Assembly: GCA_045589455.1 (NCBI GenBank)
Contig: JAZNPC010000066.1
Span: 127,227 to 191,226 of the forward strand
Source: Kiritimatiellia bacterium
Lineage (GTDB): Bacteria; Verrucomicrobiota; Kiritimatiellia; RFP12; UBA3636
Reading direction: 5' to 3'
DNA length: 64,000 nucleotides
Shown here: positions 125 through 45,999 of the stretch, one piece after another
Layout: the number at the start of each line of letters is the position of its first letter
How positions within the stretch are numbered: the stretch's first letter is position 1
Translations under genes and position numbers: made by a program
Notes under the pieces: generated by a model
Databases searched by the model: none
Told to the model about the DNA's origin: nothing
The model's input: the letters and a program-made list of their open reading frames with translations, nothing else

Positions 125-1492
125 ATGAAAACATCAATTTTTGCAATAACAAAATTGGCAATCAAGCAATGCTTTAAGACTTGCTTTGTATGGATATTGC
201 TTGCTTTTTCCATTTTGTGTATAGCTGGCGCTATGGGCAAGGGCTCAAATCCTGATATGGTACGCCAAATAGCGTTTTGTTGGCTTCCTACAGGAATACT
301 CACGATATTTGTAGTAGGTGTCCTTTGGATGGGTTGTAGTTCAATTGCCAATGATATAGAAGAAAATAGATTTATTGGAACTGCAGTTGCACCAGTAAGG
401 AAGGGTGTTGTATGGCTTGGTCGCTGGTTAGGATTAATGCTTTCAACAGCCCTTATTTTGGGCGTTGTTTTTGTGCTTATTGGTATAAATGGATTGTATT
501 CTTGTGGTTTAGAACGACCTCGAGAACAACTAGTATTACTGCCAGAAGCTAAGGAACAAACTATTCACGAGATTCATCAGCATTTACTTGCTGAAGAGTC
601 AAAAGCCGCTGGTGGAGAATTCGTCCAAACACCAGAGCAAAGTGAAAGAACAATTAATGAATTGCGTAAAAGATTGGAAAGCCAATATTTCCCATTGCCA
701 GTAGCTTCCTCTCGAGTATGGGATTATTCTTTGAATGGGTTTGATTTTGATGAAGGAGAAACAATTTTTCTCGAGATATCATTTCTCACGAGCTACGGAA
801 CTACTGGTGGAGCTAATGGGTTAGTAAAAGTCTACGGAATACCTAAAGAAAAAAACGCTTCGGTTGTGCATTTATATGATTATCCAACAACAAATGATGT
901 CCATGGAAAAACATTTTTCAATATTCCTACAGAGCATATGGGTGATATGTCTGCGCTACGTATAGTTTTTGAGAATGCTTCAGCGGAGGCGGGTGGAGCT
1001 ACTGTTTTTATTAACTATGGAGAATCTCTTTTGGCTTTTGCACCAAAAGGAACCTTTGGAATTAATTTACTTTATGCATATTTAATGAGCTTAGGTCTTC
1101 TTTCAATAGTAGCAGGAATAGGTGTTACATCAGGTATGCAATTTTCATTTCCGGTTGCGATTTTTAGTGCATTTGTTTTGATGCTTATGGTTGTCATAGC
1201 TAGTGGTGATACAATAGCAAGCTATAGTTATTATTCTGGTCATTCTCATGGGGAAAAACAAGAGCCAAGTGTTGTTACAGAGATTATAGCAGCAAATGCG
1301 AAGATAATATCAAAGGGTGTGCATTATACAACAGAATCATATCTAGAAGAGGAGCCTTTTGCAAAATGGGGTAGAAACCTTTTGATTCACGATAAGAATG
1401 TTTTTGAATGGGTTTTTGTGTCATTTGTAATATTGCCATTTATTTTTTGCTTGGTGGGAAGCTCGACATTGTCGCATAAAGAATTTAAATAA
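125..1492 (+). CDS. Polytopic membrane protein, possibly an ABC-2-type permease partner of the upstream ATPase.
   Basis: ATG-initiated 455-aa ORF. It has several hydrophobic helices at the N- and C-termini and a large central hydrophilic loop. It lies directly downstream of the ABC-ATPase-like tail. Confidence 0.5.
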   Translation: MKTSIFAITKLAIKQCFKTCFVWILLAFSILCIAGAMGKGSNPDMVRQIAFCWLPTGILTIFVVGVLWMGCSSIANDIEENRFIGTAVAPVRKGVVWLGRWLGLMLSTALILGVVFVLIGINGLYSCGLERPREQLVLLPEAKEQTIHEIHQHLLAEESKAAGGEFVQTPEQSERTINELRKRLESQYFPLPVASSRVWDYSLNGFDFDEGETIFLEISFLTSYGTTGGANGLVKVYGIPKEKNASVVHLYDYPTTNDVHGKTFFNIPTEHMGDMSALRIVFENASAEAGGATVFINYGESLLAFAPKGTFGINLLYAYLMSLGLLSIVAGIGVTSGMQFSFPVAIFSAFVLMLMVVIASGDTIASYSYYSGHSHGEKQEPSVVTEIIAANAKIISKGVHYTTESYLEEEPFAKWGRNLLIHDKNVFEWVFVSFVILPFIFCLVGSSTLSHKEFK

Positions 1493-1504: not shown

Positions 1505-1936
1505 ATGAAGCTATTGATTAAAAAGCTTAGTGAAGAAGCAACCTTGCCACAATATGCACATCCAGAGGATGCTGGTATGGATTTGTATTCAATTGAGGCG
1601 CAAACTATTCAGCCAGGAGAGACGGCTCTCGTTCGCACAGGCATTGCAATTGCGTTACCTCCTAATACTGAGGCACAGGTGCGACCTAGGAGCGGACTTG
1701 CAGCAAAAAATAGCATAACAGTATTAAATACACCAGGAACAGTAGATGAAGGCTATCGAGGGGAAATTAAGGTTATAATGATTAACCTTGGTAAGGCACC
1801 CTTCGTAATAGAGCCCAAAATGCGAATAGCGCAGATGGTAATTTGTCCAGTTCTTCATCCTGAGATTATCTCGGTAGATGAATTAGATGAAACAGCTCGT
1901 GGTGTAGGTGGTTTTGGTTCTACAGGAGTTATTTAG
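1505..1936 (+). CDS. dut: dUTP diphosphatase (dUTPase).
   Basis: 143 aa containing the conserved dUTPase motifs ([38 protein letters not shown]). The start is 12 nt after the stop of the preceding gene. Confidence 0.92.
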
Positions 1937-2036: not shown

Positions 2037-2648
2037 ATGCAATTAGAATGTCCATATTGTGATACCTTGCTAGAAGTAGAAGAAGAGATGGCAGGCATGA
2101 ATGTTGAATGCCCAATTTGTAGTAAAATATTTCTTGTGCCAGCAGAGGCTAGAGTTGTGCCTGCACAGGAAAACGTTGTACCATCAGTCACACCACAAAA
2201 CAATAATCAAGAAGATTTGACATCAAAATCTCGTGCGACAAGGACTGATTATTGGTGTATAACAATAGTTCTTTTAGTTTGGAGTTATTTTTTTAACCCA
2301 TTAGATTATGATTCTATATTACCATTATTATTATTTGCTGGATGTAAAGGTTATTGGTATACAGTATTCTATGGAAGATTAAAAGATATCAATATTTCTG
2401 AAGAAGGATTTGATCTGTTTTGGGATAAACTATTTTTTATTAGTATATTAGGCGAAATTTTTACGTATGTTTATATTCTTACAGGTGAATACATTGATCC
2501 AGCGAAATTTAAAGGAAAGGCACTGCTATTAATTTGCATAGCATATTATGCCCCTTGGGTTTGCATGGCATTGTCGTTTATAGTTGGCTTTATTGATGGA
2601 ACTGTAGGGAGAAATAGATATGGCGCAGATCCAAGAAAAAGAAAATAG
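2037..2648 (+). CDS. Zinc-ribbon plus DUF805-type inner-membrane protein.
   Basis: The N-terminus has CPYC...CPIC (MJ0042-type zinc ribbon). The C-terminal half has hydrophobic helices and the DUF805-like ending GRNRYGADP. ATG at 2037 is preceded by AGGGG; the longer ORF from 1908 overlaps dut and is unlikely. Confidence 0.6.
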   Translation: MQLECPYCDTLLEVEEEMAGMNVECPICSKIFLVPAEARVVPAQENVVPSVTPQNNNQEDLTSKSRATRTDYWCITIVLLVWSYFFNPLDYDSILPLLLFAGCKGYWYTVFYGRLKDINISEEGFDLFWDKLFFISILGEIFTYVYILTGEYIDPAKFKGKALLLICIAYYAPWVCMALSFIVGFIDGTVGRNRYGADPRKRK

Positions 2649-2688
2649 TTATTGATATCCTACAAAATAATATATAGATACTTCAATT

Positions 2689-2724: not shown

Positions 2725-3157
2725 TAAATAGGTTTAATCCTTATTTCGGTATAAAATAGCTGAAATAAGTTTTTTTTCAAAATTTGTATAAAAACAACTT
2801 TTTGTTCCGTATTAATTTAGTAGGTCGTATTGACTATTTAAAAAAAAATTTAATCTAAATGATAAAATTCTAGAATTTGGAGATGTTATGGGAAGAATGA
2901 GTGGAATTAAGAGCTCTGATTAGAGAAATAATAGATTTTTTTATGTAATATAATGTATTCTATTCTTCGTTGTTCGTTAAATAGAAAATATTGATGTCTA
3001 ATAAAGCATCAATTTTACATTTAGTCAATAATTTGACATTGAATGCGAAAATGGTTTTGGATATAATTTTTCTAAAATAATATATAAAGATATTAGTGTA
3101 AAATTTTTCATACCATTGCTAAAAATAATTTTATAACAACTTAATAATTAAAGATTC

Positions 3158-3778
3158 ATGCGTTACTATACATACAAGAGCGATATAACTAGATCAAGCG
3201 TAATGGATGGCGTAAAAGAGGGCACTGAAGCTGCGTGGAGTAGATTTTTTGATTTATATGCTGGCTTTATCTTTGGAATTGCTCGCTCAAAAGGCTTACT
3301 AGAGCAAGAGGCCAATGATGTTGTTCAAAATGTAATGGTAGATGTTATTCATCATTTTGAAAATGGCTTTGTATATGATCGAAAAAAAGGAAATTTTAGA
3401 GCGTGGTTGGGAAATCTCGTTGGTTGGCGTGTAAATGATATTTTGCGCCAGCGTAGTCATATTAGCAATGGTCAAAGAGTGTCCTTTACTCCAATAGATG
3501 AGGTGGATATTTCCCATAATCCAGAATTGGATTCTATCATCGATGAGGAATGGCGTGCTGTTACAATAGGGAGAGCATTAAAGATATTACGAGAAGAGGT
3601 TTCACCGGAGCATTTTCAAATTTTTCACGCTCTTGAAATTGAAGAATGGCCAACAGATAAGGTCTGCCAAACCTTTGGAGCTACGAAAAGTAATGTTTAT
3701 CAGATTCGTAGGCGATTAAGAGAAAAATTTGAAGCAATTTTAAAACGAGAAATAGATAATGACGGATTGCAATCTTAG
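3158..3778 (+). CDS. ECF-type RNA polymerase sigma-70 family factor.
   Basis: Sigma-70 region 2-like (FDLYAGFIFGIARS...) and region 4 HTH-like (EEWPTDKVCQTFGATKSNVYQIRRRLREKF). The alternative start M16 (3203) cannot be excluded. The gene overlaps the downstream kinase by 20 nt. Confidence 0.8.
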   Translation: MRYYTYKSDITRSSVMDGVKEGTEAAWSRFFDLYAGFIFGIARSKGLLEQEANDVVQNVMVDVIHHFENGFVYDRKKGNFRAWLGNLVGWRVNDILRQRSHISNGQRVSFTPIDEVDISHNPELDSIIDEEWRAVTIGRALKILREEVSPEHFQIFHALEIEEWPTDKVCQTFGATKSNVYQIRRRLREKFEAILKREIDNDGLQS

Positions 3779-4916
3779 CAAATATAGTTTCCTTAAGGAG
3801 ATTGGGTCTGGTGCATATGGTAGTGTTTGGCTTGCAAAATCATCAGATGATACTTTTTGCGCAGTAAAAATAGTTAACAAAACATCTATTGGTGATGCTG
3901 CATATGCAAGAGAAATGCGCGGAGTTTCAACATATGGTAGGCTTCCTTGGCATAAGGGTCTTATACCAGTATATGATTTTTGGGAGAATAAAGAAAAAAC
4001 CAAATTCTATAGCGTCATGGCTTTAGCTGATGATGAAAAGACAGGGCGCGAAATTAATCCCGAAACATATCGTCCAAAGACACTTTCTTCAATAATCTCT
4101 AGCCGTGTAGCATTGCCAATGGATGAATGTATTTCAATGGCACGTCTATTGCTGAATGGCCTAGAATATCTTCAAAATAACCATCTAATACATAGAGATA
4201 TTAAGCCAAGTAATGTCCTCATTATAAATGAAGAACCAGTTCTAACAGATTTTGGCTTAGCTATCGATTATAGAGAAGCAAATTCGATCGTTGGAACACC
4301 GGGATATGTACCACCAGAAAACCATGGAAGCGTACAAGGAGATATTTTTAGTCTTGGTAAGCTTTTTTATTCTATAAGCACGGGGCGTTCTGTTGATGAA
4401 TTTGGCTATGCTCCAAGAGCAGAAGCAGATATTTCTTCTCCATTATTTCCAGCTTGGATGAAGATTATTAATAAAGCATGTGCACCCCGTTTGGCGGATA
4501 GATATTTTTCTTCACGAGCCGTACTTGAAGATATTGAGAATATGCTTAAGAGACCACGTAAAAAGAAGCGATTTGTTGTTCTCTATATATGCTTTTTCAT
4601 TGCCTTAATGGCTGCCTTATTCTTTTTTCTCAACAACTTGTTTTTTAATAACATAGATCAAGCACAACCCTCTAATATAAATAAGGCAGAAATAGGGGAA
4701 GGTCAAAATAACGTAGGAGTGCCTGAAAACGTTACTGATGATGAAGCCCATGCTCAACAGGTAGAGCAAGCTAAAGAGACTCTGCGACATTCGGTTGATA
4801 ATCTTTCTCAAGCAATAGAAGAGCAGGTTTTAAGAAATGAAGCAGTTCGAGAAAAAATAGAAGAAAAAACCGAACAAGCGATAGAAGACTTTCATGAATC
4901 AGTAGGCATAGAATAA
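3759..4916 (+). CDS. Membrane-anchored Ser/Thr protein kinase (Hanks-type).
   Basis: Kinase motifs GSGAYGSVW, VAVK-like AVKIV, HRDIKPSNVLI, DFGLA and GTPGYVPPE. One TM helix (FVVLYICFFIALMAALFFFL) is followed by a ~95-aa coiled-coil-like tail. Confidence 0.88.
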   Translation: MTDCNLSKYSFLKEIGSGAYGSVWLAKSSDDTFCAVKIVNKTSIGDAAYAREMRGVSTYGRLPWHKGLIPVYDFWENKEKTKFYSVMALADDEKTGREINPETYRPKTLSSIISSRVALPMDECISMARLLLNGLEYLQNNHLIHRDIKPSNVLIINEEPVLTDFGLAIDYREANSIVGTPGYVPPENHGSVQGDIFSLGKLFYSISTGRSVDEFGYAPRAEADISSPLFPAWMKIINKACAPRLADRYFSSRAVLEDIENMLKRPRKKKRFVVLYICFFIALMAALFFFLNNLFFNNIDQAQPSNINKAEIGEGQNNVGVPENVTDDEAHAQQVEQAKETLRHSVDNLSQAIEEQVLRNEAVREKIEEKTEQAIEDFHESVGIE

Positions 4917-4954
4917 TCCTAATTTAGACAGTTACATGCAAATTTAGGATAGGC
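4914..4954. terminator. Imperfect hairpin in the convergent gap between the kinase gene and priA; possible bidirectional terminator.
   Basis: atcctaatttagacagttacatgcaaatttaggat inverted repeat. Confidence 0.3.
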
Positions 4955-10584: not shown

Positions 10585-11655
10585 ATGAATAAAAATGCAG
10601 AAATCGTTCCTTGTATGTTAAAAAAGGGAACAGAACCTACGACGAATAAAGTATGTCGCAGACCACAACTTAGGAATAATAGAATAAATTATCAGTTTGG
10701 GTGGTTTTTTGTTACATTCCAGGTGACAGAGAATAAGAGTGAACTAGGTGCGATAGTTGGTGAAAAATGTGTGTTGAATGCACTTGGGGAAGCTGTTGTA
10801 TCACTCATTAAATCATTGCAGCAATATAATCCTGAGGTTTTTGTAGATTCTTTTGTTGTGATGCCAAATCATGTTCATTTAATTTTAAAAATAGAGAATA
10901 AACTTAGTAATGGTGAGCGGCATCTCAGTAAAATTATCGGCAAGCTTAAAAGCCTTGCTGCGTATGAATATCGTTTGCTTAGAAATAATGGGTTGGCACG
11001 TGATATTGGTACAAGTCTTTGGCAAGAGAATTATTGGGAGAAGATAATCTCTTCGTATAAGCAACTTGATGCGATTCGTGTTTATGTGGAGAATAATCCT
11101 AAGTGTTGGTCCATGGATAGATTTGGTCCAGTGACAGCATATTATCTGGGAAATATAGAGCTGTTAAATAAGCCATTCGTTGCTTTTGTGGCGAGTCAGG
11201 AATCAAGAGCTGATGAGCCTGTGTTTAAGTTGGAGCGGAGGCGTGGGACGAGGCGGGGGGCGACGCCCCCGCACCCCGAGAAAATAGATTTTTTGCATTT
11301 AGGGGAAATGGATACTTTGCAGTTGGAGGAATCTTTTTCAGGGGTGTTGGCTCCTGTTATTTCTACTTTTACCAGTCCTCAAGAGCGAGCTGTTCTACGG
11401 CGTATAATAATGAAGAAACGTCGTTTTATAGCAGTTTATCCAGGTGGTTTGCCAACAGTTTTGCCACTAGAGATTGCTGCCTGTGTTAAGTCAGGTATTG
11501 CACTTTTGCTATCTCCGGTTGAATCAGGCACAGGTATCAATAAGCAACGTGCAATTTGGTGTAATGAATATGTAGTTCGCCGTGCAAAAGAGGTGTGGTG
11601 TGGTTATATCAAGCCAGGAGGCACATTAGAATCAATTTTGAAAGCTCTAATGTAA
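10585..11655 (+). CDS. HuH Y1-type (IS200/RAYT-like) transposase homologue fused to a C-terminal DprA-like domain.
   Basis: The N-terminal ~180 aa carry the HuH motif MPNHVHLIL and the catalytic-tyrosine helix SLWQENYWEKII...AIRVYVENNP typical of IS200/REP-associated tyrosine transposases. The C-terminal ~170 aa show a weak DprA-like pattern (FVAFVASQES..., RFIAVYPGG..., LLSPVESGTG..., EVWCGYIKPGG). A GC-rich REP-like palindrome is embedded in the linker. Confidence 0.7.
   Translation: MNKNAEIVPCMLKKGTEPTTNKVCRRPQLRNNRINYQFGWFFVTFQVTENKSELGAIVGEKCVLNALGEAVVSLIKSLQQYNPEVFVDSFVVMPNHVHLILKIENKLSNGERHLSKIIGKLKSLAAYEYRLLRNNGLARDIGTSLWQENYWEKIISSYKQLDAIRVYVENNPKCWSMDRFGPVTAYYLGNIELLNKPFVAFVASQESRADEPVFKLERRRGTRRGATPPHPEKIDFLHLGEMDTLQLEESFSGVLAPVISTFTSPQERAVLRRIIMKKRRFIAVYPGGLPTVLPLEIAACVKSGIALLLSPVESGTGINKQRAIWCNEYVVRRAKEVWCGYIKPGGTLESILKALM
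11255..11285. repeat. GC-rich REP-like palindrome (gcggggggcgacgcccccgc) inside the CDS.
   Basis: It contains the perfect palindrome gggggcg-a-cgccccc. Its reverse-complement partner lies at 11737..11775. Confidence 0.6.
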
Positions 11656-11932: not shown

Positions 11933-11993
11933 TTATTGTTGTATTACCATGCGTAATTTTGTTATATTAAATGCTATAAAAAGGAGTATGGTC

Positions 11994-13424
11994 ATGTTTA
12001 TTGGTAGAGAAAATGCTTTGGATCAGTTAAATGCGCTGTTGCAAAAACAAACCGCATCGCTTGTTACTTGTAGAGGACGTCGACGAATCGGTAAGAGTAC
12101 TCTTATTGAGGTTTTTGCAGAACGCTCTAAAAGCAGATTTATTAAATTAGAGGGGCGTCGTCCAGAAAAAGGACTAACTAACAATGACGAACTTGCTACT
12201 TTTGCTAAACAACTTGCTAACCAAACATCGATAGAATCAACACCTCCATCCAACTGGTTGGATGCGTTTAGAAGAATTGATTCACAAATAAATGATTCTG
12301 AGCGCACAGTTGTCTTGCTCGATGAGGTATCGTGGATGGCATATTATGACAAAAGTTTTGCCTCTGACCTTAAAATGGCTTGGGATAATTTATTCAAAAA
12401 ACATAAAAAATTAATTTTTGTTGTTTGTGGTAGTGTCTCAACATGGATACGAGAAAATATTGTAGATAATGGTGCTTTCTTGGGAAGACGCTCCTTGGAT
12501 ATCGTTCTTAAAGAATTACCAATTTCAGATTGTGTTAAGTTTTGGGGTAAAGCAGCTTCGCGTATAGATGAAAGAGAAATTATAGATGTTCTTTCTGTCA
12601 CAGGCGGTGTTCCTAGATATCTAGAGGAGATAAATCCTTCGCTTTCAGCTTTTGAAAATATTAGACGTCTTTGTTTTATGCCTAATAGTATTCTAAGAAC
12701 AGATTTTGACGAAATGTTTAATGATGTCATAAGTAAAGAACAAGACTTTTCTGCTCAAGTTCTTAGATGTTTAGCGGATGGTTCTAAAACGGGTACGGAA
12801 ATTTCTAAAATGCTTCGAGTAGATAAGGGAGGTAGAGTTTCTGCTGCGTTAAGACGATTAGAAGAAGCAGGGCTTGTTTCTAGTGATGTATCTATCAATC
12901 CTGAGACAGGAAAACCATCAAGAGAAATTCGCTTTCGTTTAAGAGATAATTATTCTAGGTTTTATATAAAATATATAGAACCAATGAAAAGAATTATTGA
13001 TGATGGTGCATTTGATTGTGTTTCTTTAGAAGCATTAGAAGGAATAGAAACCGTACTAGGTTTAGCATTTGAAAATTTAGTAGTTAATAATTATAGAGAG
13101 CTAATCCCACTAATCAATTTAAAAGGGACTTTGGTTACATCTGCTGCACCATATAGACGTGTTGGTGGAAGCAAAAAAGGATGTCAAATAGATTTGCTTA
13201 TACAAACAAGAAGAACCATTTGTGTCGTTGAGATAAAGCGACGTCAAGAAATTGGCAGAGAAATAATAAATGAGGTAGACAATAAAATAAGAGCGATAGA
13301 ACGCCCTTCTGGAGTTTCGGCAAGGGCTGCACTTGTTTATTTAGGTCATCTTTCTCCAGTTGTTGAGGCCGATGGATATTTTGATTCGATTATTCATTTT
13401 AGAAAAGTACTTGGATTATCCTGA
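11994..13424 (+). CDS. ATP-binding protein of the archaeal-type ATPase family (PF01637-like with a DUF234-like C-terminus), STAND-like.
   Basis: The N-terminus FIGRENALDQL...GRRRIGKSTL has a Walker A motif, a Walker B motif (VVLLDEVSWM) and a C-terminal winged-helix-like region. ATG at 11994 lies 7 nt after AAGGAG; upstream ATGs at 11949 and 11988 have poorer spacing. Confidence 0.7.
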   Translation: MFIGRENALDQLNALLQKQTASLVTCRGRRRIGKSTLIEVFAERSKSRFIKLEGRRPEKGLTNNDELATFAKQLANQTSIESTPPSNWLDAFRRIDSQINDSERTVVLLDEVSWMAYYDKSFASDLKMAWDNLFKKHKKLIFVVCGSVSTWIRENIVDNGAFLGRRSLDIVLKELPISDCVKFWGKAASRIDEREIIDVLSVTGGVPRYLEEINPSLSAFENIRRLCFMPNSILRTDFDEMFNDVISKEQDFSAQVLRCLADGSKTGTEISKMLRVDKGGRVSAALRRLEEAGLVSSDVSINPETGKPSREIRFRLRDNYSRFYIKYIEPMKRIIDDGAFDCVSLEALEGIETVLGLAFENLVVNNYRELIPLINLKGTLVTSAAPYRRVGGSKKGCQIDLLIQTRRTICVVEIKRRQEIGREIINEVDNKIRAIERPSGVSARAALVYLGHLSPVVEADGYFDSIIHFRKVLGLS

Positions 13425-16281: not shown

Positions 16282-19200
16282 ATGAAAAAGATTATATCGA
16301 TATTGTTTGCATTTGTTACCGTGTTGTCTATTGATGCTTTTGCTGCATGGACTATTGTTTCAGAGGGTTCAAATCCTCAGGTTACAGATGGTAATTGGGT
16401 GATCGAATTAAATTCAAAGTATAAAGCCAAGTTTGTATCTAAGGCTGATGGCGGAAGCACTGTTCTTGATATGTCAACCTTGAATAGCGACTTGGCTGCT
16501 GCTGGCTATTCGTATACATGTACTGAGTTTGATGCAAATGGCTTCCGAGGTAACGCTTATGCTATTCTAAAAACAGAGCTTACGGAAATTTATTTCCCAG
16601 ATGAGGTTACAAAAATCGGTCAGCAGTGTTTCCAAAATTGTAATGCCCTAGTAACAGTTGAGTTAGGAAGTAACTTCACCTCTTTTGCTAATACTCACGG
16701 CTTTTCACAGTGTCATTCATTAACGACATTATACACACGTGGAGAAGAAAAGGTTGTTGGTACAATTAAGCTTCCTGATGCGGTTACAACACTTCCAAAC
16801 TACACATTTGAAGCCTGTAAATCATATACTAACATGATTGCTAGAGGTGTAAAAAAAATTGGTCAGGCAACATTTTATCAAAATGGAGCAGTATGTAGCA
16901 TTGAGCTATCTCCAGAGTTATATTCTGTAACTAGTGGTAATAATAATGGAACAATGTATCAAAACTGGAACTTAACAAATTTTTATCCATCTGTTATGGC
17001 TTTAACAGATAATGTTGGAAATAGCTCCTTCCGTGAACTCCCTTTAAAGCACGGACTTGATTTTTCAAAATCAACCTTTACTGCTGTTGAAGAAAGTTCT
17101 TTTTATGGTATAGCATTGCCTAATGATAAAAAAATTATTTTGCCTTCAACACTGAACAACGTCGGCGCAAATGCATTTCGTCAGCAACAGAATGGCAGAA
17201 CGGAGTATGTAAATCTTCGTTTTCTTGGTGAGGTCCCTGTAACTTTGGGAACAGACTGCTTTACTCCACGTAATAGTGGCAGACATAATGTATTATATGT
17301 TGATGCAAAGAAGTGCACATCTTGGACAGCACAAAATTTCACTCCTCTAACAGAGGATATGAAGAGCGAAGCCTCTTATCCTGGAGAGAAGACACTTGGT
17401 AAGTCAACAATTGGTGTGAACCAAAGCGGCTGGTGGAACTGGCTTGTTCAGGAGGATCTTCCAAAGGGACCAACTGAGTGGAATATCGTTTCAGAAAATG
17501 ATGATGGCTCTATTACAATTTGTAATACTGTAGACACCTGGACCTTTAAGCTAATCCCAGATGGAAATGGTGCTTATCTTGTAAAATACGTTTCTGATGA
17601 GTTGGCTGCTGATGCAACTGTTGAGCTTGAGCTAGTAAAAATTTCTGATGACTTGGAAATTGAAATTGCAGGCTTGGCAGATGAAGCATTTAAGGGCGTG
17701 ACAAAGATTAGTAAGCTTATTCTCCCTGTAGGTGCAGATTATATGGGTGATTATGCTTTGGAAAATTGCACAAATCTTAAAGAGCTAATTCTTTCTTCCG
17801 GCTTTAATTATAATGAAGCAGGTAAGGGTGCATTCAAGGGCTGCTCAAGTCTAAGTATTGTAGGTCTTTCAACTCAATCAATTACTGCAGGTGTTGTTGT
17901 GCTTCCAGATAGTGTTACATCAATATCTGAAGAACTATTTGCAGGTTGCACAAGCATCACACAAGTTACTGGTAAGGGAGTTGCCACAATTGGTGCAAAT
18001 GCTTTTGCTAATGCTTCTGCTCTTGCACGTGTTGCATTCTCTAAGGATCTTGGTGCGCTAACCTTAGGTGAGGGATCATTCATGGGTACAGCACTTATTC
18101 AGACAATTGATTTAACACTAACACCAATGACAAAAATTCCAGCAAATGCATTTGCAAATTGCTCTGGAATTTCACTTGTTATTGTTCCTGCATCTGTAAC
18201 TGAAATCGGTGCTAATGCATTTGCTAATATGGCAGGTGGCGCAAATATCAGCTTTGCTGGTTCTGTTCCAACGCTTGGTGCAAATGCTCTAATGCCTTCA
18301 AGTGGTGCCGCAGGTTCTCGTTATGTTATCCGTGTAGAGGATGAGTATAAGGCATCATGGCAGGAAAATAACTTTACAGCTATTACAGATTCTATGATGG
18401 AGGAGTCTGATTATTATTCAAACTTCTATGTAGGACAAACTACTGCTGGTACAGACGGTACTGCAAACTGGATGTTCTGCAAAGATCCTTCAAAGACTTG
18501 GTGGATCAGTGGTGTTGGTACATATACACGCCTAGATAACAATCAGAAATTTTCTACTCAGACTGTAACTGATGGCACTTACATTATGCATGTAGTTAAA
18601 GACGGAGGAAAGCTATATCTTGCTCCAAGCGTTTGTGTTGCTGGCGGTGTTCTTGATATGTCAACATTGGATGTTGATATTGGTCTTGAGCCAGTGTCAC
18701 TACATGCAAGAGCTTTCTTTAAATTTGAAAATACACCTGCTGTTGTAAGACTGCCTGATAGTATGACATCTATCGGTTATCAAGCATTCCACGAAAATAA
18801 GAAAATTGTTGAGGTTGAACTAGGTGCTGGCATCACATCATTAGGTGATAGCCCATTTAGAGAGTGCGAGGCTTTCTCTACAATGTATCAGCGCGGAACA
18901 GCAGAGCGCATTGAGGGTCAGGTAAATATCCCTGCAACAGTAACATCTATTTCTGCTGGTGCAGAATTCTTTAATTGCGATGGCATTAAAGAGGTTATCG
19001 CTACTGGAGTAGTTGTTGTAGGTAATTCAACATTCTACGAGTGCAGCTATGTCACAAATATTGTTTTATCTCCTGATCTTTATGAATTTAAGGCAGGTGG
19101 ACAAGGTGCTTTCTATCAGTGTAAGTCGCTAAAAACAATTAGTCCAAATGAGATGAAGCTTGTAGCAACAGGCTCCGGAACCTTCCGTGAGTTACGTCTT

Positions 19201-19677
19201 TCCCATGGTTTGGATCTGTCTAAGAGTACATTCACATATGTTGGCGATAAGGCTTTCTATGCAACAAAGTGTACTGATGAAAATGGCTTTGCATGCCCAA
19301 TGGTAATGCCAAAGACTGTTACAAAACTAGATGGACAGGCATTCTGGGGCCAGAATGGAAATGGTAATCAGATTATCGTCTTCAAGGGTGATAAGCCAAC
19401 AAGCGTTCAATCAAACTCGTTAGATACAAATAATAATGGTCTGAATACTCTTGTTGTTGATGCTGAGGCATACCCAGCTTGGCTGGATGCTGGTGAGTTT
19501 ACACCTGCTTCAGAGCTTCCTGAGGCTGATGTTGCAAAGATTAATCTTCAGCTTAATTCAAATCCAAATTATCCTGGCGTAAAGCTTCTTGGTAAACTAT
19601 CAACAGGAACAGCTGGAAAATATCTAAACTGGATTGCTCAGCTTGAACAGCCTTTGACAATGATTATTATTAAATAA
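16282..19677 (+). CDS. Large secreted surface protein (1131 aa) with BspA-type LRR (LRR_5) modules and an internally duplicated two-domain architecture.
   Basis: Signal peptide MKKIISILFAFVTVLSIDAFA. Two homologous halves share VLDMSTL... and FRELxLxHGLDxSKSTFT... modules. LRR_5-like modules (e.g. GAFKGCSSL, ANAFANCS) are present. The C-terminal tail is ...EQPLTMIIIK. Confidence 0.85.
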   Translation: MKKIISILFAFVTVLSIDAFAAWTIVSEGSNPQVTDGNWVIELNSKYKAKFVSKADGGSTVLDMSTLNSDLAAAGYSYTCTEFDANGFRGNAYAILKTELTEIYFPDEVTKIGQQCFQNCNALVTVELGSNFTSFANTHGFSQCHSLTTLYTRGEEKVVGTIKLPDAVTTLPNYTFEACKSYTNMIARGVKKIGQATFYQNGAVCSIELSPELYSVTSGNNNGTMYQNWNLTNFYPSVMALTDNVGNSSFRELPLKHGLDFSKSTFTAVEESSFYGIALPNDKKIILPSTLNNVGANAFRQQQNGRTEYVNLRFLGEVPVTLGTDCFTPRNSGRHNVLYVDAKKCTSWTAQNFTPLTEDMKSEASYPGEKTLGKSTIGVNQSGWWNWLVQEDLPKGPTEWNIVSENDDGSITICNTVDTWTFKLIPDGNGAYLVKYVSDELAADATVELELVKISDDLEIEIAGLADEAFKGVTKISKLILPVGADYMGDYALENCTNLKELILSSGFNYNEAGKGAFKGCSSLSIVGLSTQSITAGVVVLPDSVTSISEELFAGCTSITQVTGKGVATIGANAFANASALARVAFSKDLGALTLGEGSFMGTALIQTIDLTLTPMTKIPANAFANCSGISLVIVPASVTEIGANAFANMAGGANISFAGSVPTLGANALMPSSGAAGSRYVIRVEDEYKASWQENNFTAITDSMMEESDYYSNFYVGQTTAGTDGTANWMFCKDPSKTWWISGVGTYTRLDNNQKFSTQTVTDGTYIMHVVKDGGKLYLAPSVCVAGGVLDMSTLDVDIGLEPVSLHARAFFKFENTPAVVRLPDSMTSIGYQAFHENKKIVEVELGAGITSLGDSPFRECEAFSTMYQRGTAERIEGQVNIPATVTSISAGAEFFNCDGIKEVIATGVVVVGNSTFYECSYVTNIVLSPDLYEFKAGGQGAFYQCKSLKTISPNEMKLVATGSGTFRELRLSHGLDLSKSTFTYVGDKAFYATKCTDENGFACPMVMPKTVTKLDGQAFWGQNGNGNQIIVFKGDKPTSVQSNSLDTNNNGLNTLVVDAEAYPAWLDAGEFTPASELPEADVAKINLQLNSNPNYPGVKLLGKLSTGTAGKYLNWIAQLEQPLTMIIIK

Positions 19678-20016: not shown

Positions 20017-21249
20017 ATGAAAATTAAAAGAGACTTTTATTTGACACAGCTAATTGATCGAAAGCATAATCGGATGATCAAAATAGTGAGTGGTATTAGG
20101 CGATGTGGCAAATCATATTTACTGTCTGAATTATTTACTCAACATTTACTAGATGAAGGTGTTGATAGGCATCATATCATACATATTGATTTAGATACTA
20201 GAGACAATTTAGAATATAGGAATCCAGATGCATGTAATCAATATGTAAAATCATTAATTAAGGATGATAACATGTACTATCTTCTTTTGGACGAGGTCCA
20301 ATTGATGGAGGACTTTGTTAGTGTTTTAAATGGCTTTTTGCATATTAAAAATCTTGATGTTTATGTAACAGGAAGCAATTCAAAGTTTTTATCATCTGAT
20401 ATTGTCACAGAATTTAGGGGACGCGGGGATGAAATAAGGGTATATCCATTAAGCTTTGCAGAAATTTATCCTATTTATGACAACAATTGGGAGAAAGCCT
20501 GGGGTGATTACACTGTTTATGGTGGAATTCCTTTAGTTTTTACCTATCAAAAGGAAGAAGACAAGGTTAAGTATTTGAAAAATTTGTTTAAAGAAACCTA
20601 TTTAAAGGATATTATTGAGAGAAATAGAATTAAAAGCACAGAGGAACTAGAGGAATTATTAAATATATTAGCATCTAACATAGGTTCTTTGGTTAATCCC
20701 CAAAAATTGACCGCAACCTTTAAAAGTGTAAAAAAAGTAGACTTATCAGCTCCAACAATAAAGCAATATTTAGATTATTTACAGGATGCATTTTTTGTTA
20801 ATAAAGTACTTAGGTATAATATTAAGGGGAAGAAATATATTAATACACCATTTAAGTGTTATTTTACAGATATTGGATTAAGGAATACTAGCCTTTATTT
20901 CCGCCAAATAGAAGAGACACATATTATGGAGAACATCATATATAATGAATTACAAATTCGTGGTTATAATGTAGATGTTGGGGAGGTGAATATAGGCGGC
21001 AACAGAATGACAGAGGTAGATTTTATAGCAAATCTTGGCAACAAGAGGTATTATATTCAATCTGTATTATCTATGCCAACAGTAGAAAAAATTATGCAGG
21101 AAAAGAAATCCTTACTAGGGATAAGAGACGGCTTTAAGAAAATAATTATTACAAAAGAGAATATATTGCGAGCATATCAGGATGAGGATGGAATAACCAT
21201 TATGAGTTTAAAAGAATTTCTCTTAAATAAGAACAGTTTAGATATATAG
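20017..21249 (+). CDS. AAA_14/DUF4143-family ATP-binding protein.
   Basis: Walker A GIRRCGKSYLL, LLLDEVQLM, the sensor region TGSNSKFL...RGRGDEIRVYPLSFAEI, and a C-terminal DUF4143-like EVDFIANLG. Confidence 0.85.
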   Translation: MKIKRDFYLTQLIDRKHNRMIKIVSGIRRCGKSYLLSELFTQHLLDEGVDRHHIIHIDLDTRDNLEYRNPDACNQYVKSLIKDDNMYYLLLDEVQLMEDFVSVLNGFLHIKNLDVYVTGSNSKFLSSDIVTEFRGRGDEIRVYPLSFAEIYPIYDNNWEKAWGDYTVYGGIPLVFTYQKEEDKVKYLKNLFKETYLKDIIERNRIKSTEELEELLNILASNIGSLVNPQKLTATFKSVKKVDLSAPTIKQYLDYLQDAFFVNKVLRYNIKGKKYINTPFKCYFTDIGLRNTSLYFRQIEETHIMENIIYNELQIRGYNVDVGEVNIGGNRMTEVDFIANLGNKRYYIQSVLSMPTVEKIMQEKKSLLGIRDGFKKIIITKENILRAYQDEDGITIMSLKEFLLNKNSLDI

Positions 21250-21525: not shown

Positions 21526-22791
21526 ATGAAAAAATCATTGTTCGTTTTGACAATCGGTGCTTTAACAGCACTATGCTTCGCAGATCCAGTTTGGACAGAA
21601 ACAGCAGATTCAACATCCTCAAATCGCAGGGCTACGGACGGAAATTTCGTTGTTGGTTGGGATGGCACAGGTGGTTCAGCATGGCGGCTATATTATGTTT
21701 CTCATGATGCTTCTGTGAGCACTGTGCTTGATATGACAACACTTTGCTCTGATATGGATGCAGCAGGAATAAAATATCCTAATACAGTAAATGGATCTGG
21801 ATTTGCTAATAAATCTGGAATTACAAGAATTGTTTTCCCTGAGGAGATTATTTATTTTCATCAAAATGCTTTCTCATCTATGTCAGACCTAGAGTCTGTT
21901 GTAATTTCTTCTAAGACAACTTGGTCGCCTAGCTCAAATCCTAAGCAGTGCTTCAGTAGTTGTACTTCTCTTTCTATGATTACACCTCGTGGTGTTGCAG
22001 AAACGAATGGTGTTGTATATCTTCCTGAGGGTTGTACCGCAATCCCAAACAATATGTTTCAGTTTTGTTATGATGCACCAATTAAGCATGTTATAGCTCC
22101 TTGGGTTGTTTCTATTAAGGAAGCTGCATTTTACACCATGTCTAAACTTGAAACAATAACAGTTTCACCAGATATACATACTATTGGTGGTAATTACCCT
22201 ATAAGCGACTGTGCCTCTCTTACAAAAATCATAGCAGGAGATAACTCTTTTAGAAACTTATCTTCATTGGATGGTAGTCAAGTTTTTAAAAATTGTAAAA
22301 ATTTTTCTATGCCATTAAATTTTTCAAAGTCAACTTTTACCTCTATCCCATATAGATGTTTTTGGGGTACAACTGACAAGGTGCCTGAAATACATTTGCC
22401 AGCTACATTAACTTATGTTGGGAAGAATGCTTTTCGTATGGACAATACTATAATGCAAAATTTATTCTATTTCTATGGCATGCCACCAACCTTTGAGTGT
22501 GATGAGGATAATATATTTGGTAAGCATGGATGTTCTTCTTCTACTCACCCAAGGCGTATTGTTTTTATTAAAGCTGAATACAAGACGGAATGGTTAACAA
22601 TGTTTGGGGATAAGTTAGCTCCTATAACAGATGCAGATAAGGCAAGAGACGATTATCCAACAAAGTCTGAAGTTGTAAAGGTTGTAGGTGCAAACGTTTT
22701 AGGTGTATCTACATATGAATCTCGCTATTGCCCATACTATGTTTGCACATTTGTTGAGCCAAATATGCCTCTATCAATCATAATAAAATAA
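21526..22791 (+). CDS. Secreted protein (421 aa), paralogue of the N-terminal half of the 1131-aa surface protein.
   Basis: Signal peptide MKKSLFVLTIGALTALCFA. Shared VLDMTTLCSDM and SKSTFTSI modules. C-terminal tail ...EPNMPLSIIIK. Confidence 0.85.
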   Translation: MKKSLFVLTIGALTALCFADPVWTETADSTSSNRRATDGNFVVGWDGTGGSAWRLYYVSHDASVSTVLDMTTLCSDMDAAGIKYPNTVNGSGFANKSGITRIVFPEEIIYFHQNAFSSMSDLESVVISSKTTWSPSSNPKQCFSSCTSLSMITPRGVAETNGVVYLPEGCTAIPNNMFQFCYDAPIKHVIAPWVVSIKEAAFYTMSKLETITVSPDIHTIGGNYPISDCASLTKIIAGDNSFRNLSSLDGSQVFKNCKNFSMPLNFSKSTFTSIPYRCFWGTTDKVPEIHLPATLTYVGKNAFRMDNTIMQNLFYFYGMPPTFECDEDNIFGKHGCSSSTHPRRIVFIKAEYKTEWLTMFGDKLAPITDADKARDDYPTKSEVVKVVGANVLGVSTYESRYCPYYVCTFVEPNMPLSIIIK

Positions 22792-22851: not shown

Positions 22852-24111
22852 ATGAAAAAATCATTGTTTGTTTTGACAATCGGTGCTTTAACAGCACTAT
22901 GCTTTGCAGATCCAGTTTGGGTAGAAACAGCAGATTCAACATCCTCAAAGCGTAGAGCTACTGACGGAAATTTCGTTGTTGGTTGGGAAGGCGGAAGACT
23001 GTATTATGTCTCTCATGATTCATCAGTAGGAACAGTGCTTGATATGACAACACTTTGCTCTGATATGGAAGCAGCAGCAATAGGATATCCAACAATTGTT
23101 AATACGGAAGGATTTCTCAGTAAATCTGGAATTACAAGAATTGTATTCCCAGAGGAGATTGTTACTTTTTATAAGAAAGCCTGCTCATCTATGCCAGACC
23201 TAGAGTCTGTTGTGATTTCTTCCAAGACTGCGTGGGATAAAAAATCATATCCACAGCAGTGTTTTTCTTCTTGTACAAATTTATGTTCAATTACACCTCG
23301 TGGTGTTGCAGAAACAAATGGTGTTGTATATCTTCCAGAGGGTTGCACAAGTATTGCAAACAATATGCTTCAGTCATGTAATAATGCACCGATAAAGCAT
23401 ATTATTGCTCCATGGGCTACAGCTATTACGGAAGCAGCTTTTCAATATTGCTATAATCTTGAAACAGTAACGGTTTCAAAGGATTTGCAAACTATAGAAT
23501 CTTTTGCATTTCAGAATTGCTCATCTTTTACAAATCTTATAGCAGGGGATAATTCTTTTGAGAAGCTTTCATCAATGGGAGGATCAAGATCCTTTCAAGG
23601 ATGTTCTAAGTTAGCTCAAAAGTTTGATTTTTCAAAGTCAACATTTACTTCTATAGGATCTCAGTTTATGTATGGAGCAGACAATGTTTCAGAGATTCAT
23701 TTGCCAGCGACATTAACTCAAGTATCAGGACAAGCTTTTCGTGCAGATACCCGACCAGTGCAGCGCTTGATTTATTTCTATGGTGCTCCTCCAACATTTA
23801 ATGATGGTGAAAAGCTTGCTTTAGGTAGTACAAATAATAATCCAACGCCTAGATTTATTGTATTTATCAAAGATGAGTATAAAGAGGAATGGTTGGAATT
23901 ATTTGCAACAGATTCCTTTAATGAAATAACCGATGCAGATAAGGCAAGAGACGATTATCCAACAAAGTCAGAGGTCGTAAAAGTCTCTGCAAATCGCGTT
24001 TTAGGTACTTCAACATTTATGGCTCACTTTAATAATGGAAATAAACTTTCTACATACTATGTTTGCACATTTGTTGAGCCAAACCTACCTCTTACAATTA
24101 TAATTAAATAA
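22852..24111 (+). CDS. Secreted protein (419 aa), tandem paralogue of 21526..22791.
   Basis: The first ~70 nt are nearly identical to the previous gene, giving the same signal peptide. Protein identity is ~60%. C-terminal tail ...EPNLPLTIIIK. Confidence 0.85.
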   Translation: MKKSLFVLTIGALTALCFADPVWVETADSTSSKRRATDGNFVVGWEGGRLYYVSHDSSVGTVLDMTTLCSDMEAAAIGYPTIVNTEGFLSKSGITRIVFPEEIVTFYKKACSSMPDLESVVISSKTAWDKKSYPQQCFSSCTNLCSITPRGVAETNGVVYLPEGCTSIANNMLQSCNNAPIKHIIAPWATAITEAAFQYCYNLETVTVSKDLQTIESFAFQNCSSFTNLIAGDNSFEKLSSMGGSRSFQGCSKLAQKFDFSKSTFTSIGSQFMYGADNVSEIHLPATLTQVSGQAFRADTRPVQRLIYFYGAPPTFNDGEKLALGSTNNNPTPRFIVFIKDEYKEEWLELFATDSFNEITDADKARDDYPTKSEVVKVSANRVLGTSTFMAHFNNGNKLSTYYVCTFVEPNLPLTIIIK

Positions 24112-24153: not shown

Positions 24154-27100
24154 ATGAAAAGAGCACAAAATATATTTCTAGCATTTTTTGCTTTATTTCT
24201 GATGGCACAAGAAGCAAATGCTACTGTGTATAGACCAGGTTTCCAACAGTTCAGATATAGCTGTGCTAAGGACAAGGAAGCTGATTTAACAGTTACCTAT
24301 GATTCTATTACAGATGCAAATAAACGTGATATTACAGCCACAACACTCATGGCAAGCATCAATGGCACAGGTAGTGTTGTTAATCCACTTACTGGTAAAA
24401 CTTGGAATTGGTCAGACAATACCACCTTTGGCTATGAATCACAAATTTGGTTGGAGCCAGGTACTTATACCTTCTGGGGACGCTATGATGATGGTGGTGC
24501 AGTTCTTATCAATGGTGATGTGATTTATACACATGGTGCAAAATCAGGTTATAATGAATCTCCAGCTTCAGGAGATTTTGTTGTTACAAAAGCTGGTTGG
24601 TATGATTTCCGTGGCTATGTATGGGACTGGTCTGGTGGTAAGAACCCTATGGGAGAAGCTAAGAGTGCTATCCAAATGAAAAAGGATGGCGGAGCCTGGA
24701 TTATCAATATGGAGGGTGTTCCTGCTCGTTATGCAACAGGTGTAGAATATTTAGAAATCCAAAAAGCTGTTGCTTCTGAAACAGAAGGTTGCTTTGATGT
24801 GACTGTTGCTGCAACATTTCCAAGTGGAACAACGGCTCAGGTTTGGGCATTAGCTACAAATGGTAATGTTGGTCATTTACCTAAAGATAAATGGAGTTCT
24901 TCTTCTGAAGCACAGTCTATAACTAGTGATGGAACAACACAAATTTTAACTTTTACAGTCGATGCTTCTGCTCTCGGAAATCCATATGTTGTTGCATATT
25001 CAGAAAATGTTTATACAGATATTTTGACAGAGGAATCTGCAGCAAATCCAGATTTTAATTTAGAAAAAGCATATTCTTCACTTGTTCCTGTGGCTACCGC
25101 TGCAGCAGGCTATATAATAATTGATGAAGTTAAGTATTTAGATGTTGATATATTTACAAATATTGATAGTTTTGGTGTGGGAGCAACTGGTGTTGAGGGA
25201 ACAATTGAGGTTAGTACTTCAGTAGATTTCTCTAATCCTATAACTGTAGAATTAGGCTCTTTAGCTTTTGGTGCTTCACTACATACTATCTCGGGTTTAA
25301 CAACGAATGTAACCTATAATATTCGCCTTGTGATGGTCAATAGCGAAGGAGCAACAACATATACAGATCCTGTAGAGTTTACAACATTGAATCCTCAACC
25401 TGCGATTATTACTTCTACGCTTTATACCACAGAGTATAATGTGTTTAAACCAACTGTAATACTTGAGTCTTATGGTGCTGGTTCTACCACAGCAACAGTC
25501 AGCTATCAAGTTTCTACAACAGAGGATTTCTCTGATATTGTAATAGAACAAGAAGTTCCAAATGCTATGCTTGGGCAAGGGGTAGAGATTAAAATTAACA
25601 AATTAGATGACGGTTCACCACTTGTTGGAGCAAGTACTTACTACTTCCGCCCAGTTGTTGTTAATGAGTGGGGGCTTGTCACCTATGGTGATACAATTAA
25701 AGCACAATTGGCTGATACTATTATTACCTATAATGGATTTGGGTATAATAAAACCGATGCTGGTTTAGAGCTTGTTGCCTATGTCACATACGTTCTAGAA
25801 GATGCAATCTTTGATGCAACCCTAGAAATCAACAATGTTGTAGTTAAAGAGTGGAATGGTATAAATGCTGCAACTACCTTAGCATATACTATAGAAAATG
25901 ATTCACTAAAATCTCAAAATACTGCAAAACTAACATTTGATATCACAACAAATAATGGCCAAACCGTTGAAGTGCTGGAGGAAGAGTTTATCAAGAATCA
26001 GCAACGTGTTATGGCTTTTAGCTCAATTGCAGAATTGGATAATAATGATGCAAGCTATACAATAGCTAAGATTGGTGATGTGATTAAGATGCCTAAGCTC
26101 ATCGACGATAACGAAAATTATGTTGCTGGTGATACTCGCGTGGCAAGGCTCTTAGAAGATGGTAATTCTATTGAAATTATCGGTCATGGATTCACTAAGA
26201 TTACAAAGCGCATAGTTGATCCTGCCTCTGGAAATATAACGCTAGAGCGTGGTCTTGTGGTTGTTCCTCCAACTCCAGCAGGTGAGGGCAATGTTTATAT
26301 GCTAATCATTCCTCAGGCAGATAGATATTGGGATACAACTCACTGGAAAAACTTAACCAATCCAGAGGCTGGTGGCTATCCTTCTAAGAAGGATGATATC
26401 GCTATGATTTTTATGTATGGCACAAAGAGTATGTTTGTTAATACTGATATTACAGTAGGTCAGATTTGGATTGGTGTAGAAGGAGGAAACTTCTACTTAC
26501 GAGGACAACAAGGCGGCGAAGGAGCTAAAACAGTCACATTTGAGCGTAGCGATAAAGAGATGCCTCTTTTCAGAATTTCTGGTTTAGAGCAGACAGATGG
26601 CGTTGTTCTTCCTTGGGCATTGCCACACTTTTATATTCAACCAAGCTTAAAAACCCCTCTAATATTTGACTGTTCAAATGATTTATTATTTGATGCAGGA
26701 TGTCCTTTTGATCCTTTAAGTAGAGATGATGTAACAGGTAAGTCTCTTCAGAGAGTTTCATTAGAAACAGGATTTATTTTAAATATACCAAAGGGAGCAA
26801 GGGTTGTTTTTGATGGAACAAATGCAGGCAATAGAGATGGTGATACCCAAAGAGGTAATGTAACCTTCCGTTTTTCGAGTAACGCTTTTGTTGGAGAGGG
26901 AACAGTTGATTATAATGGACCAAGTAGTGTGTGCTTTACTCCAGATGCATCAGATTTTAATGGTGTATTTGATTTGACCCACATGAATAAGTACGATTCC
27001 TTTGGAATTGGAGATCGTGGTGGTGGTGTATACATGCTATTCTGGGAGGGCAGTCAACCAGGAGCAAATGCTTCTCAGCGTCTTGAGGGGCATATTGGCT

Positions 27101-36061: not shown

Positions 36062-36627
36062 AAAATCTCCTTTTTTTGATAAAACTATATATAAAACGTT
36101 TTAAAATTTCAAGTAAAATTTACGATGCAATCGTAAATTTTACTAAAATTGTGTGCGCTTATTCCTTAATTCAGTAGTTAGATTTTAGTGCGCGTTAAAG
36201 CCACAATGAGCATTGCGAGACCTTAAAATTGCAATAGTAATTTTTCTCGCGCTAGACCAAATGATGGAGGAGCAGATGTTTTGCATTGCAAAACATAGGT
36301 GAGAAGTAAGAAGTAAAAGGTAAGAGATTCGGTATGTGCGTGCGCGGGCGGCTAACGCATGCGCACCGCTCTCGCCTACGGGAAGATTGGAAGCTGGGGA
36401 GGATGGGAGGTTTGTCTGATGGGTGGTGTGGTTGTGGCGCTAGCGCGTACATTTGTGTCGTGTGCGCTGTAAAATGTGCGCCAGCCAAGCTGCACAAAAA
36501 TGTAATTATTTCTATCATTATAGGTTTAAATGGTTTGCATAAATTATATCGGTATTTTGTTTGACTGATTTTGTTAAATAGTTGTAAAATATCAATAAAT
36601 TTAAATAAAGTTATTTTGGAGATTCTT

Positions 36628-43844: not shown

Positions 43845-43885
43845 AAGATATCCATTGATGAAATTCAAATTTGCGCAATCAAAAA

Positions 43886-45052: not shown

Positions 45053-45054
45053 TT

Positions 45055-45903: not shown

Positions 45904-45999
45904 AATTAGCCTCATAAAAAAGCTTAAAAACAATTCGTTTACTTAAGTTATAATTATAACATAATTATACGGAGGAAAGCAAATAACAAAATGCGCAAG

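Follow-up and report, generated by a model that had tools for sequence, protein, structure and literature searches.

Two overlapping genes in a 64,000-nt stretch of a contig from a gut or rumen Kiritimatiellia bacterium (JAZNPC010000066.1; the whole stretch is referred to below as the window) encode an extracytoplasmic function (ECF) sigma factor and a membrane-anchored Hanks-type serine/threonine kinase. The locus is a kinase-linked ECF pair of the Planctomycetes-Verrucomicrobia-Chlamydiae (PVC) bacteria, a kind that has already been described: the sigma gene has a conserved adjoining gene for a Hanks-type kinase, and no anti-sigma factor is encoded with them. On balance, we consider it probable that the two proteins form a signaling module in which the activity of the sigma factor is controlled by direct phosphorylation.

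The reading frames of the two genes overlap by exactly 20 nt, as the sigma stop codon TAG (3776-3778) follows the kinase ATG at 3759 (Table 1). This ATG is the earliest start codon in the kinase frame, and no further in-frame ATG, GTG or TTG is found between 3759 and the glycine loop of the kinase, which begins at residue 16. The start of the sigma gene is supported by its M1, which is invariant in the family alignment. The overlap implies that the two genes are co-transcribed, and their translation is probably coupled through it. No paralog of either protein was identified in the 64-kb window by tblastn.

The product of the first gene is an ECF (group 4) member of the sigma-70 family. It scores 46.7 bits against the TIGR02937 sigma70-ECF model (cutoff 42.9); with Sigma70_r2 the score is 21.9 bits, slightly below the cutoff of that model. 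Its AlphaFold model (mean pLDDT 80.8) is composed of two helical domains, for which the Foldseek matches in the PDB at E <= 0.001 are exclusively ECF sigma factors (AlgU, SigE, SigW, CnrH and RpoE). The profile of the sigma family also aligns with R. sphaeroides RpoE and with M. tuberculosis SigE and SigK.

The product of the second gene matches the Pkinase domain PF00069 (1.2e-31, 110.6 bits) and contains the complete catalytic set of a Hanks-type kinase, namely GSGAYG at residues 16-21, K37, E52, HRDIKPSN at 145-152 and DFG at 164-166. Residues G18, G21, K37, E52, H145-R-D147, K149, N152, D164 and G166 are invariant in 43 kinase homologs, as are S176 and T180 of the activation segment. Because these catalytic and activation-segment residues are invariant, catalysis is under selection in the kinase family. 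The DFG motif varies at its middle residue among the same 43 homologs (V in 13, F in 10 and P in 10), the DPG form being found in relatives that have the kinase gene first, for example in the kinases of loci L009, L014 and L021. AlphaFold predicts the kinase domain with pLDDT >90, followed by a transmembrane (TM) helix at residues 268-297, then a disordered segment (302-326) and, last, one long helix spanning 327-381. From the basic stretch KRPRKKKR ahead of the TM helix, the kinase domain is on the cytoplasmic side. An earlier note on this DNA, made by a model from the letters alone, had the ECF open reading frame (ORF) ending at 3778 and the kinase ORF starting at 3759 with a 20-nt overlap, and described a kinase with one TM helix and a short coiled-coil C-terminal tail. 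The ORF list and the raw sequence agree with the former, and the hydrophobic segment at ~271-293 together with AlphaFold helix 327-381 confirms the latter.

We then asked how widely the two genes are found together. A search for sigma homologs returned 833 database clusters, of which the named ones are Kiritimatiellae metagenome-assembled genomes, the family being mostly from rumen and gut. Scanning one genome per species yielded 77 loci (L001-L077), of which 64 have enough flanking sequence to be informative; in 53 of these 64, a kinase homolog on the same strand directly adjoins the sigma homolog. This adjacency spans the Kiritimatiellae, Verrucomicrobiota, Phycisphaerae and Planctomycetes, and both gene orders occur. 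The sigma gene precedes and overlaps the kinase gene in the window and in L001, L002 and L078-L080, with overlaps of 14 nt in L001, L002 and L078 and of 11 nt in L079. The reverse order, with overlaps of 1-11 nt, is found in a ~40%-identical Kiritimatiellae group (L003-L027), and Verrucomicrobiota, Phycisphaerae and Planctomycetes have the sigma-first order once more. The flanking genes vary among these relatives, and clustering of the ORFs in their loci revealed no third gene family conserved with the pair. The identities of sigma and kinase homologs to the two window proteins are correlated (Spearman 0.78, n=53). Since the adjacency outlasts both the inversion of gene order and the change of neighborhood, and since the two proteins have diverged together, there is strong evidence that the pairing is not due to chance and that sigma factor and kinase work together.

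Across ~60 loci, no gene resembling an anti-sigma factor is conserved in the vicinity of the pair. The ORF upstream of the sigma gene in the window (2037..2648 on the forward strand, with limits taken from the twin contig L080) encodes a small protein whose N-terminus bears a CxxC...CxxC zinc ribbon (a weak match of the MJ0042 type) and which has a weak DUF805 membrane region. A profile search of this ORF returned no zf-HC2, ZAS or other anti-sigma match. We considered whether it could be a concealed anti-sigma gene and rejected this candidate: it has no anti-sigma domain, terminators lie between it and the sigma gene, and it is not syntenic in relatives, where the gene upstream of sigma encodes an FAD oxidoreductase (L001, L078) or lies on the opposite strand (L002). 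The earlier note had proposed that the ECF sigma factor is coupled to a Ser/Thr kinase instead of a co-encoded anti-sigma factor, with no ZAS or other anti-sigma gene adjoining. Both parts stand, the first on the conserved synteny in four PVC lineages and the co-divergence, the second on the content of the upstream ORF.

The kinase-linked ECF switch has been worked out only in group ECF43, in which a phosphate stands in for a missing acidic residue. In the window sigma factor, the sigma-2.2 motif E51-A-N-D54 lines up with 'DAEDLTQE' in M. tuberculosis SigE and with D45..D48 in E. coli RpoE. Across 120 homologs, positions 51 and 54 are D/E in 100% and position 53 in 92% of the sequences; Ser or Thr is found in none of them at positions 51, 53 and 54, and position 52 is Ser in 12%. 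With the acidic motif intact, the charge-restoration mechanism of ECF43 cannot apply to the window sigma factor, and a phospho-acceptor must be elsewhere.

Among the Ser/Thr residues that are invariant family-wide, only T11, S13 and S14, present in 120/120 homologs, have no obvious structural reason to be so. Just one other position exceeds 93% Ser/Thr, position 176 in the sigma-4 helix-turn-helix, which is a common structural position. In the AlphaFold model, residues 1-9 are disordered, T11 is the N-cap and R12-S14 lie in the first turn of helix 12-21. We hypothesize that T11/S13/S14 is a candidate phospho-acceptor site or, alternatively, a structural capping box. A second set of candidates is found in the window subgroup (eight sequences), in which S100, S103, S/T109, T111, S119 and S126 are mostly conserved and the linker elements V-[ST]-[FY]-T-P-I, S119 and S126 largely so. 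Here the subgroup has S100-H-I-S103-N where the other 112 homologs have K-R-D-A-E, the two acidic positions being 89% and 88% D/E. This exchange of acidic for uncharged residues beside serines may, in what is a small sample, echo the logic of ECF43 and the linker site T106 of the ECF43 sigma factor EcfK. A phospho-acceptor in the region-2/4 linker, as suggested in the earlier note, does not hold family-wide, because the linker is not conserved; in the window subgroup only, conserved Ser/Thr residues are indeed present there.

The extracytoplasmic part of the window kinase is short compared with that of its nearest relatives. A profile search found no FGE-sulfatase domain (PF03781) in it. This domain is present at the C-terminus of P0122-P0128, the seven nearest kinase clusters beyond the window lineage (55-69% identical, 579-616 aa), and likewise at the C-terminus of the kinases L001:5602-7341, L002:5602-7449, L078:3804-5654 and L079:2427-4274. 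In the alignment, the window kinase stops at the boundary of the FGE-sulfatase domain, just past the helical stalk, and its 99%-identical twin (L080, P0121), which comes from an independent sample, has the same 385-aa form without PF03781. The most economical reading of these sequences is that the sensor domain was lost in the window lineage. More generally, the sensor part of the family kinases is not conserved: in distant relatives it consists of WD40 or TPR regions or of nothing recognizable, with protein lengths from 319 to ~1050 aa. A truncated PknS, the kinase partner of EcfK, autophosphorylates without stimulus when it lacks its periplasmic domain (PMC13147305); by analogy, the short window kinase may signal constitutively. 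A literature search on Kiritimatiellae sigma/kinase pairs and on FGE-sulfatase kinases with ECFs found nothing relevant.

The signals upstream of the pair bear on how it is transcribed. An AT-rich spacer of 510 nt lies between the Zn-ribbon/DUF805 ORF, with its two terminators, and the sigma gene. Sites resembling sigma-70 promoters occur upstream of sigma at the density expected by chance in an AT-rich region, and the best of them, at 3039-3067, is a candidate only. Among the kinase-first operons, 8 of 19 (L012, L015, L020, L021, L022, L026, L027 and L044) have an extended -10 element (TGnTAnAAT) 19-107 nt upstream of the kinase start, whereas shuffled sequences gave 0.3 on average and 3 at most. 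This excess suggests transcription by the housekeeping sigma factor rather than ECF autoregulation, the control being post-translational. A search for gapped dyads (a 5-mer and a 4-mer separated by a spacer of 14-19 nt) in the regions upstream of five sigma-first operons (window, L001, L002, L024 and L078) identified no shared motif, and no ECF-type -35/-10 or regulon could be derived from it.

Taken together, we propose a two-gene signaling module of an ECF sigma factor and a Hanks-type Ser/Thr kinase. The two genes would be transcribed as one unit, probably from a housekeeping-type promoter and not from an autoregulated ECF promoter, with the 20-nt overlap probably linking their translation. 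The kinase is anchored in the inner membrane, its catalytic domain facing the cytoplasm, where it would phosphorylate the sigma factor directly, at a site and with a sign that we infer, and so replace an anti-sigma factor as regulator. The best acceptor candidates would be the invariant T11/S13/S14 cap and, in the window subgroup, the linker residues S100/S103 that replace acidic residues. Having no FGE-sulfatase sensor, the kinase is likely ligand-independent, and would be either constitutive or gated in some other way than through that domain.

Several points weigh against this proposal. The adjacency of sigma and kinase genes argues for coupling, not for phosphorylation. With an N-cap Thr and an N3 Ser, T11..S14 is compatible with a helix capping box, and E. 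coli RpoE, which is not known to be kinase-regulated, also has a Thr at the equivalent of T11 if the register is extended from the alignment to that position; the invariance may therefore be structural. The linker serines are conserved in just eight close sequences. A T-x-x-[ST]-hydrophobic-hydrophobic motif was found in 47 of 53 kinase-adjacent relatives versus 4 of 11 non-adjacent ones (Fisher p = 6e-4), an association that is confounded by phylogeny, as the loci are non-independent and the regular expression missed some motifs; for these two reasons we set it aside as evidence for a phosphosite. The sigma factor has all of its core-binding charges and may be intrinsically active, in which case it would call for a negative regulator and not for a kinase that activates it, and an unlinked anti-sigma factor may be encoded elsewhere in the genome, the search having covered the 64-kb window. 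No target promoter or regulon was derived for the sigma factor. Finally, no cognate PP2C phosphatase was found near the pair: tblastn with PstP and PrpC queries gave no match in the window or in L001-L077, and scanning 30 other ORFs of >=140 aa in the window (all but 54936..59591) with Pfam gave none, both of which are weak negatives.

We nonetheless prefer direct phosphorylation to each of the alternatives. The kinase could control the sigma factor indirectly, by phosphorylating an unlinked anti-sigma factor, or could sequester it at the membrane and release it on activation. An intact acidic sigma-2.2 should bind core unaided, hence the need for a negative regulator in this scenario; M. tuberculosis PknB acts on the anti-sigma factors RshA and RseA (PMC8999054; PMC13147305), and the family-specific invariant residues G209, R210, P219 and E222-A-D224 of the kinase C-lobe could form a docking surface. 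However, the ~60 loci hold no anti-sigma-like gene conserved by the pair, the invariance of the catalytic residues indicates that catalysis matters and not binding alone, and there is no evidence of sequestration in any kinase-linked ECF group; we regard control of either sort as unlikely. It is more doubtful again that the two genes are merely co-expressed in one pathway, the kinase having other targets such as the FHA sigma-54 activator encoded at 42471..43868. Hanks kinases commonly have several substrates (PMC13147305), the window does encode this phosphothreonine-reading activator, and no autoregulatory ECF promoter was found in the upstream-region searches. Against this, tight adjacency maintained through inversion and across phyla, together with co-divergence, is the pattern of interacting partners, and the FHA protein is encoded 38 kb away and is unlinked in the relatives examined.

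We give still less credence to the possibility that the module is decaying in the window lineage, with the pair a relic and the kinase left without a signal after deletion of the sensor. The FGE-sulfatase domain of the seven nearest outside kinase clusters is indeed gone from the window kinase, but both reading frames are intact with all catalytic and DNA-binding motifs retained, and the 385-aa form recurs at 99% identity in an independent sample. Moreover, many family kinases are short (319-400 aa) and have no recognizable ectodomain, so that a sensor is not required in the family. The only alternative that we exclude, its probability being close to nil, is that the kinase belongs to an anti-phage defense system (PD-T4-6-like or MADS Mad6-like) and that the sigma factor is incidental. 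PADLOC reports mad6 (108 bits) and PD-T4-6 (103 bits) on the kinase domain, and the NCBIfam MAD6 model scores 79 bits; these matches span only the generic kinase domain, and the MAD6 score is to be set against a cutoff of 460. The sigma factor has no PADLOC match, the conserved partner of the kinase is an ECF sigma factor, and the pair is flanked by dut, priA and dnaB rather than by defense-island genes. We therefore rejected the defense reading, the PADLOC matches being those of a generic kinase domain, and retain the sigma factor's direct phosphorylation as the preferred account.

Table 1. Features of the sigma-kinase locus, in positions of the 64-kb window.
Feature	Position	Strand	Basis
Terminator-like hairpin and T-run after the Zn-ribbon/DUF805 gene (second hairpin)	~2688-2725	+	seen in sequence
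Terminator-like hairpin and T-run, 11-pair stem then TTTTTTTT; 5' boundary of the sigma-kinase unit	2740..2779	+	terminator scan
Sigma-70-type promoter-like candidate, TTGAAT-17-TATAAT, 10/12 matches, ~90 nt before the sigma ATG	3039..3067	+	scan
ECF (group 4) sigma factor gene, 206 aa, ATG start	3158..3778	+	ORF list, profile search, AlphaFold/Foldseek
Codons T11-R12-S13-S14, N-cap and first turn of the first sigma-2 helix	3188..3199	+	alignment, AlphaFold
Sigma-2.2 core-binding motif E51-A-N-D54-V-V-Q-N, counterpart of canonical DAED..QE	3308..3331	+	alignment
End of sigma-2 and linker to sigma-4, S100-S126	3455..3535	+	subgroup alignment
Sigma-4 domain, helices 150-202, including the helix-turn-helix	3605..3763	+	AlphaFold, family alignment, profile alignment
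Gene overlap of 20 nt, sigma end / kinase start	3759..3778	+	ORF list, sequence
Membrane Hanks-type Ser/Thr kinase gene, 385 aa, ATG start	3759..4916	+	ORF list, profile search, AlphaFold
Cytoplasmic kinase domain, residues 9-264	3783..4550	+	profile, motifs, AlphaFold
Catalytic loop HRDIKPSN, residues 145-152	4191-4214	+	kinase sequence motifs
DFG, residues 164-166	4248-4256	+	kinase sequence motifs
Single TM helix, residues ~271-293, after basic KRPRKKKR	4569..4637	+	hydrophobicity, AlphaFold
Extracytoplasmic 55-residue C-terminal helix, residues 327-381, coiled-coil-like stalk	4737..4901	+	AlphaFold, alignment

The window has a G+C content of 39.6%. Upstream of the pair, it encodes a membrane protein (125..1492), dUTPase (dut, 1505..1936) and the Zn-ribbon/DUF805-like ORF (2037..2648). 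Downstream, priA and dnaB lie on the opposite strand and are convergent with the pair, leaving a gap of 128 nt between kinase and priA. An AT-rich imperfect inverted repeat, TCCTAATTTAG...CAAATTTAGGA, occupies 4917..4950 (+) in this gap, right after the kinase stop; it is possibly a weak bidirectional terminator, for which the terminator scan made no call.

Further away, the gene at 42471..43868 (-) encodes a sigma-54 enhancer-binding protein with an N-terminal FHA domain (2.3e-15), Sigma54_activat (5.8e-70) and HTH_8, and adjoins NifS/NifU-like genes at 43886..45933 (-). This protein could be another output of Ser/Thr kinase signaling. Four BspA-type LRR_5 proteins are encoded within 21 kb (16282..19677, 21526..22791, 22852..24111 and 36571..37476, all +), and an LRR_5 protein is also found after the sigma-kinase pair in L078. 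The window contains two AAA_14/DUF4143 ATPase genes (20017..21249, +, and 34838..36061, -), an ORF coding for an IS200-like Y1 transposase domain (10585..11655) and a gene for an ATPase_2 protein (11949..13424). The large ORFs at 24154..28419 (1421 aa), 38631..40454 (607 aa) and 46918..49053 (711 aa) have no Pfam match at 1e-5, and a 1551-aa ORF at 54936..59591 lies outside the Pfam scans.

The locus is otherwise an ordinary two-gene regulatory module of a described kind, and its interest lies in the family to which it belongs, a large and previously unnamed one (833 database clusters) that retains the acidic DAED motif. This family offers a small, tractable pair, of a 206-aa sigma factor and a 385-aa kinase, and concrete candidate sites for the DAED-retaining class, namely T11/S13/S14 and the Ser-for-Asp/Glu swap in the linker. 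It also provides a natural comparison of sensor-bearing with sensor-less kinases. A bolder idea, to which we attach only a low probability, is that the Kiritimatiellae-wide family, and perhaps all DAED-retaining kinase-linked ECFs of PVC bacteria, use a phospho-switch other than that of ECF43, acting through T11/S13/S14 or through the linker serines of the subgroup. If so, phosphorylation would gate something other than charge restoration in sigma-2.2, and the sensor-less window kinase would be a natural constitutive variant.

The kinase-linked groups in the literature are ECF43, ECF59-62, ECF217, ECF267 and ECF283 (PMC7826278). Direct phosphorylation with an effect on RNA polymerase binding has been described for two pairs, EcfP/PknT of Vibrio parahaemolyticus (Iyer 2020, as reported in PMC8999054) and EcfK/PknS of Xanthomonas citri (PMC13147305). 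In these ECF43 sigma factors, the acidic DAED is replaced (STTA, QTTA; QATE in EcfK) and the Thr found there is phosphorylated (PMC13147305; PMC8999054). EcfK is also phosphorylated in the linker, where T106 is the residue that matters (PMC13147305). In the kinase-linked ECF groups that keep an acidic DAED, the mechanism is still uncharacterized (PMC8999054). The earlier note had called kinase-linked ECF sigma factors mechanistically uncharacterized as a whole, which is out of date for ECF43, given EcfP/PknT and EcfK/PknS, and remains true of the DAED-keeping groups.

Like the ECF43 systems, the window locus lacks a co-encoded anti-sigma factor and has an ECF gene beside that of a single-pass membrane Hanks-type kinase, and its kinase has a cytoplasmic catalytic domain and an extracytoplasmic C-terminal part. 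Unlike them, the window sigma factor retains E51-A-N-D54, with positions 51 and 54 being D/E in 100% of the 120 homologs, where the ECF43 motif has uncharged residues that include the phosphorylated Thr; the motif that defines ECF43 is accordingly absent. The linker site T106 of EcfK has at most a subgroup-specific counterpart (S100/S103), and in place of the periplasmic TPR domain of PknS the window kinase has a helical stalk only.

Kinase-linked ECFs from PVC bacteria include ECF59 and the original ECF60 of Planctomycetes, in which DAED is reported to be substituted and a Ser to be present in the motif (PMC8103513). The window sigma factor shares their PVC origin and kinase linkage; the substituted motif with a Ser acceptor is excluded by the same alignment. 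Groups ECF61, ECF62, ECF217 and ECF283, from PVC bacteria and actinobacteria, have a conserved neighboring Ser/Thr kinase and usually no anti-sigma factor (Casas-Pastor 2021; PMC7826278; PMC8999054). The window sigma factor resembles them in being kinase-linked with a DAED-like motif retained, a match to their shared description only, with no group assigned. By this shared description, it belongs with the DAED-retaining, PVC-type kinase-linked ECFs. The pointer of the earlier note to Planctomycetes-type groups was well placed, as the distant relatives in which the pairing is kept are from Phycisphaerae and Planctomycetes. The resemblance is nevertheless remote: identity between the window sigma factor and planctomycete kinase-linked sigma factors is just 21-31%. 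The NCBIfam planctomycete and verrucomicrobial subfamily models (Sig-70_plancto1, Sig-70_gvs1) score it at 17-20 bits against cutoffs of 124-184, and eight of its relatives fall likewise far below the cutoffs of the NCBIfam sigma subfamily models. The Kiritimatiellae sigma family may, on these sequence comparisons, be an ECF group of its own.

[quoted passage not shown] Unlike the window sigma factor, SigH has a cognate anti-sigma factor, RshA, and its gene does not adjoin that of PknB. Like SigH and PknB, the window pair combines an ECF sigma factor that retains its acidic motif with a Hanks-type kinase.

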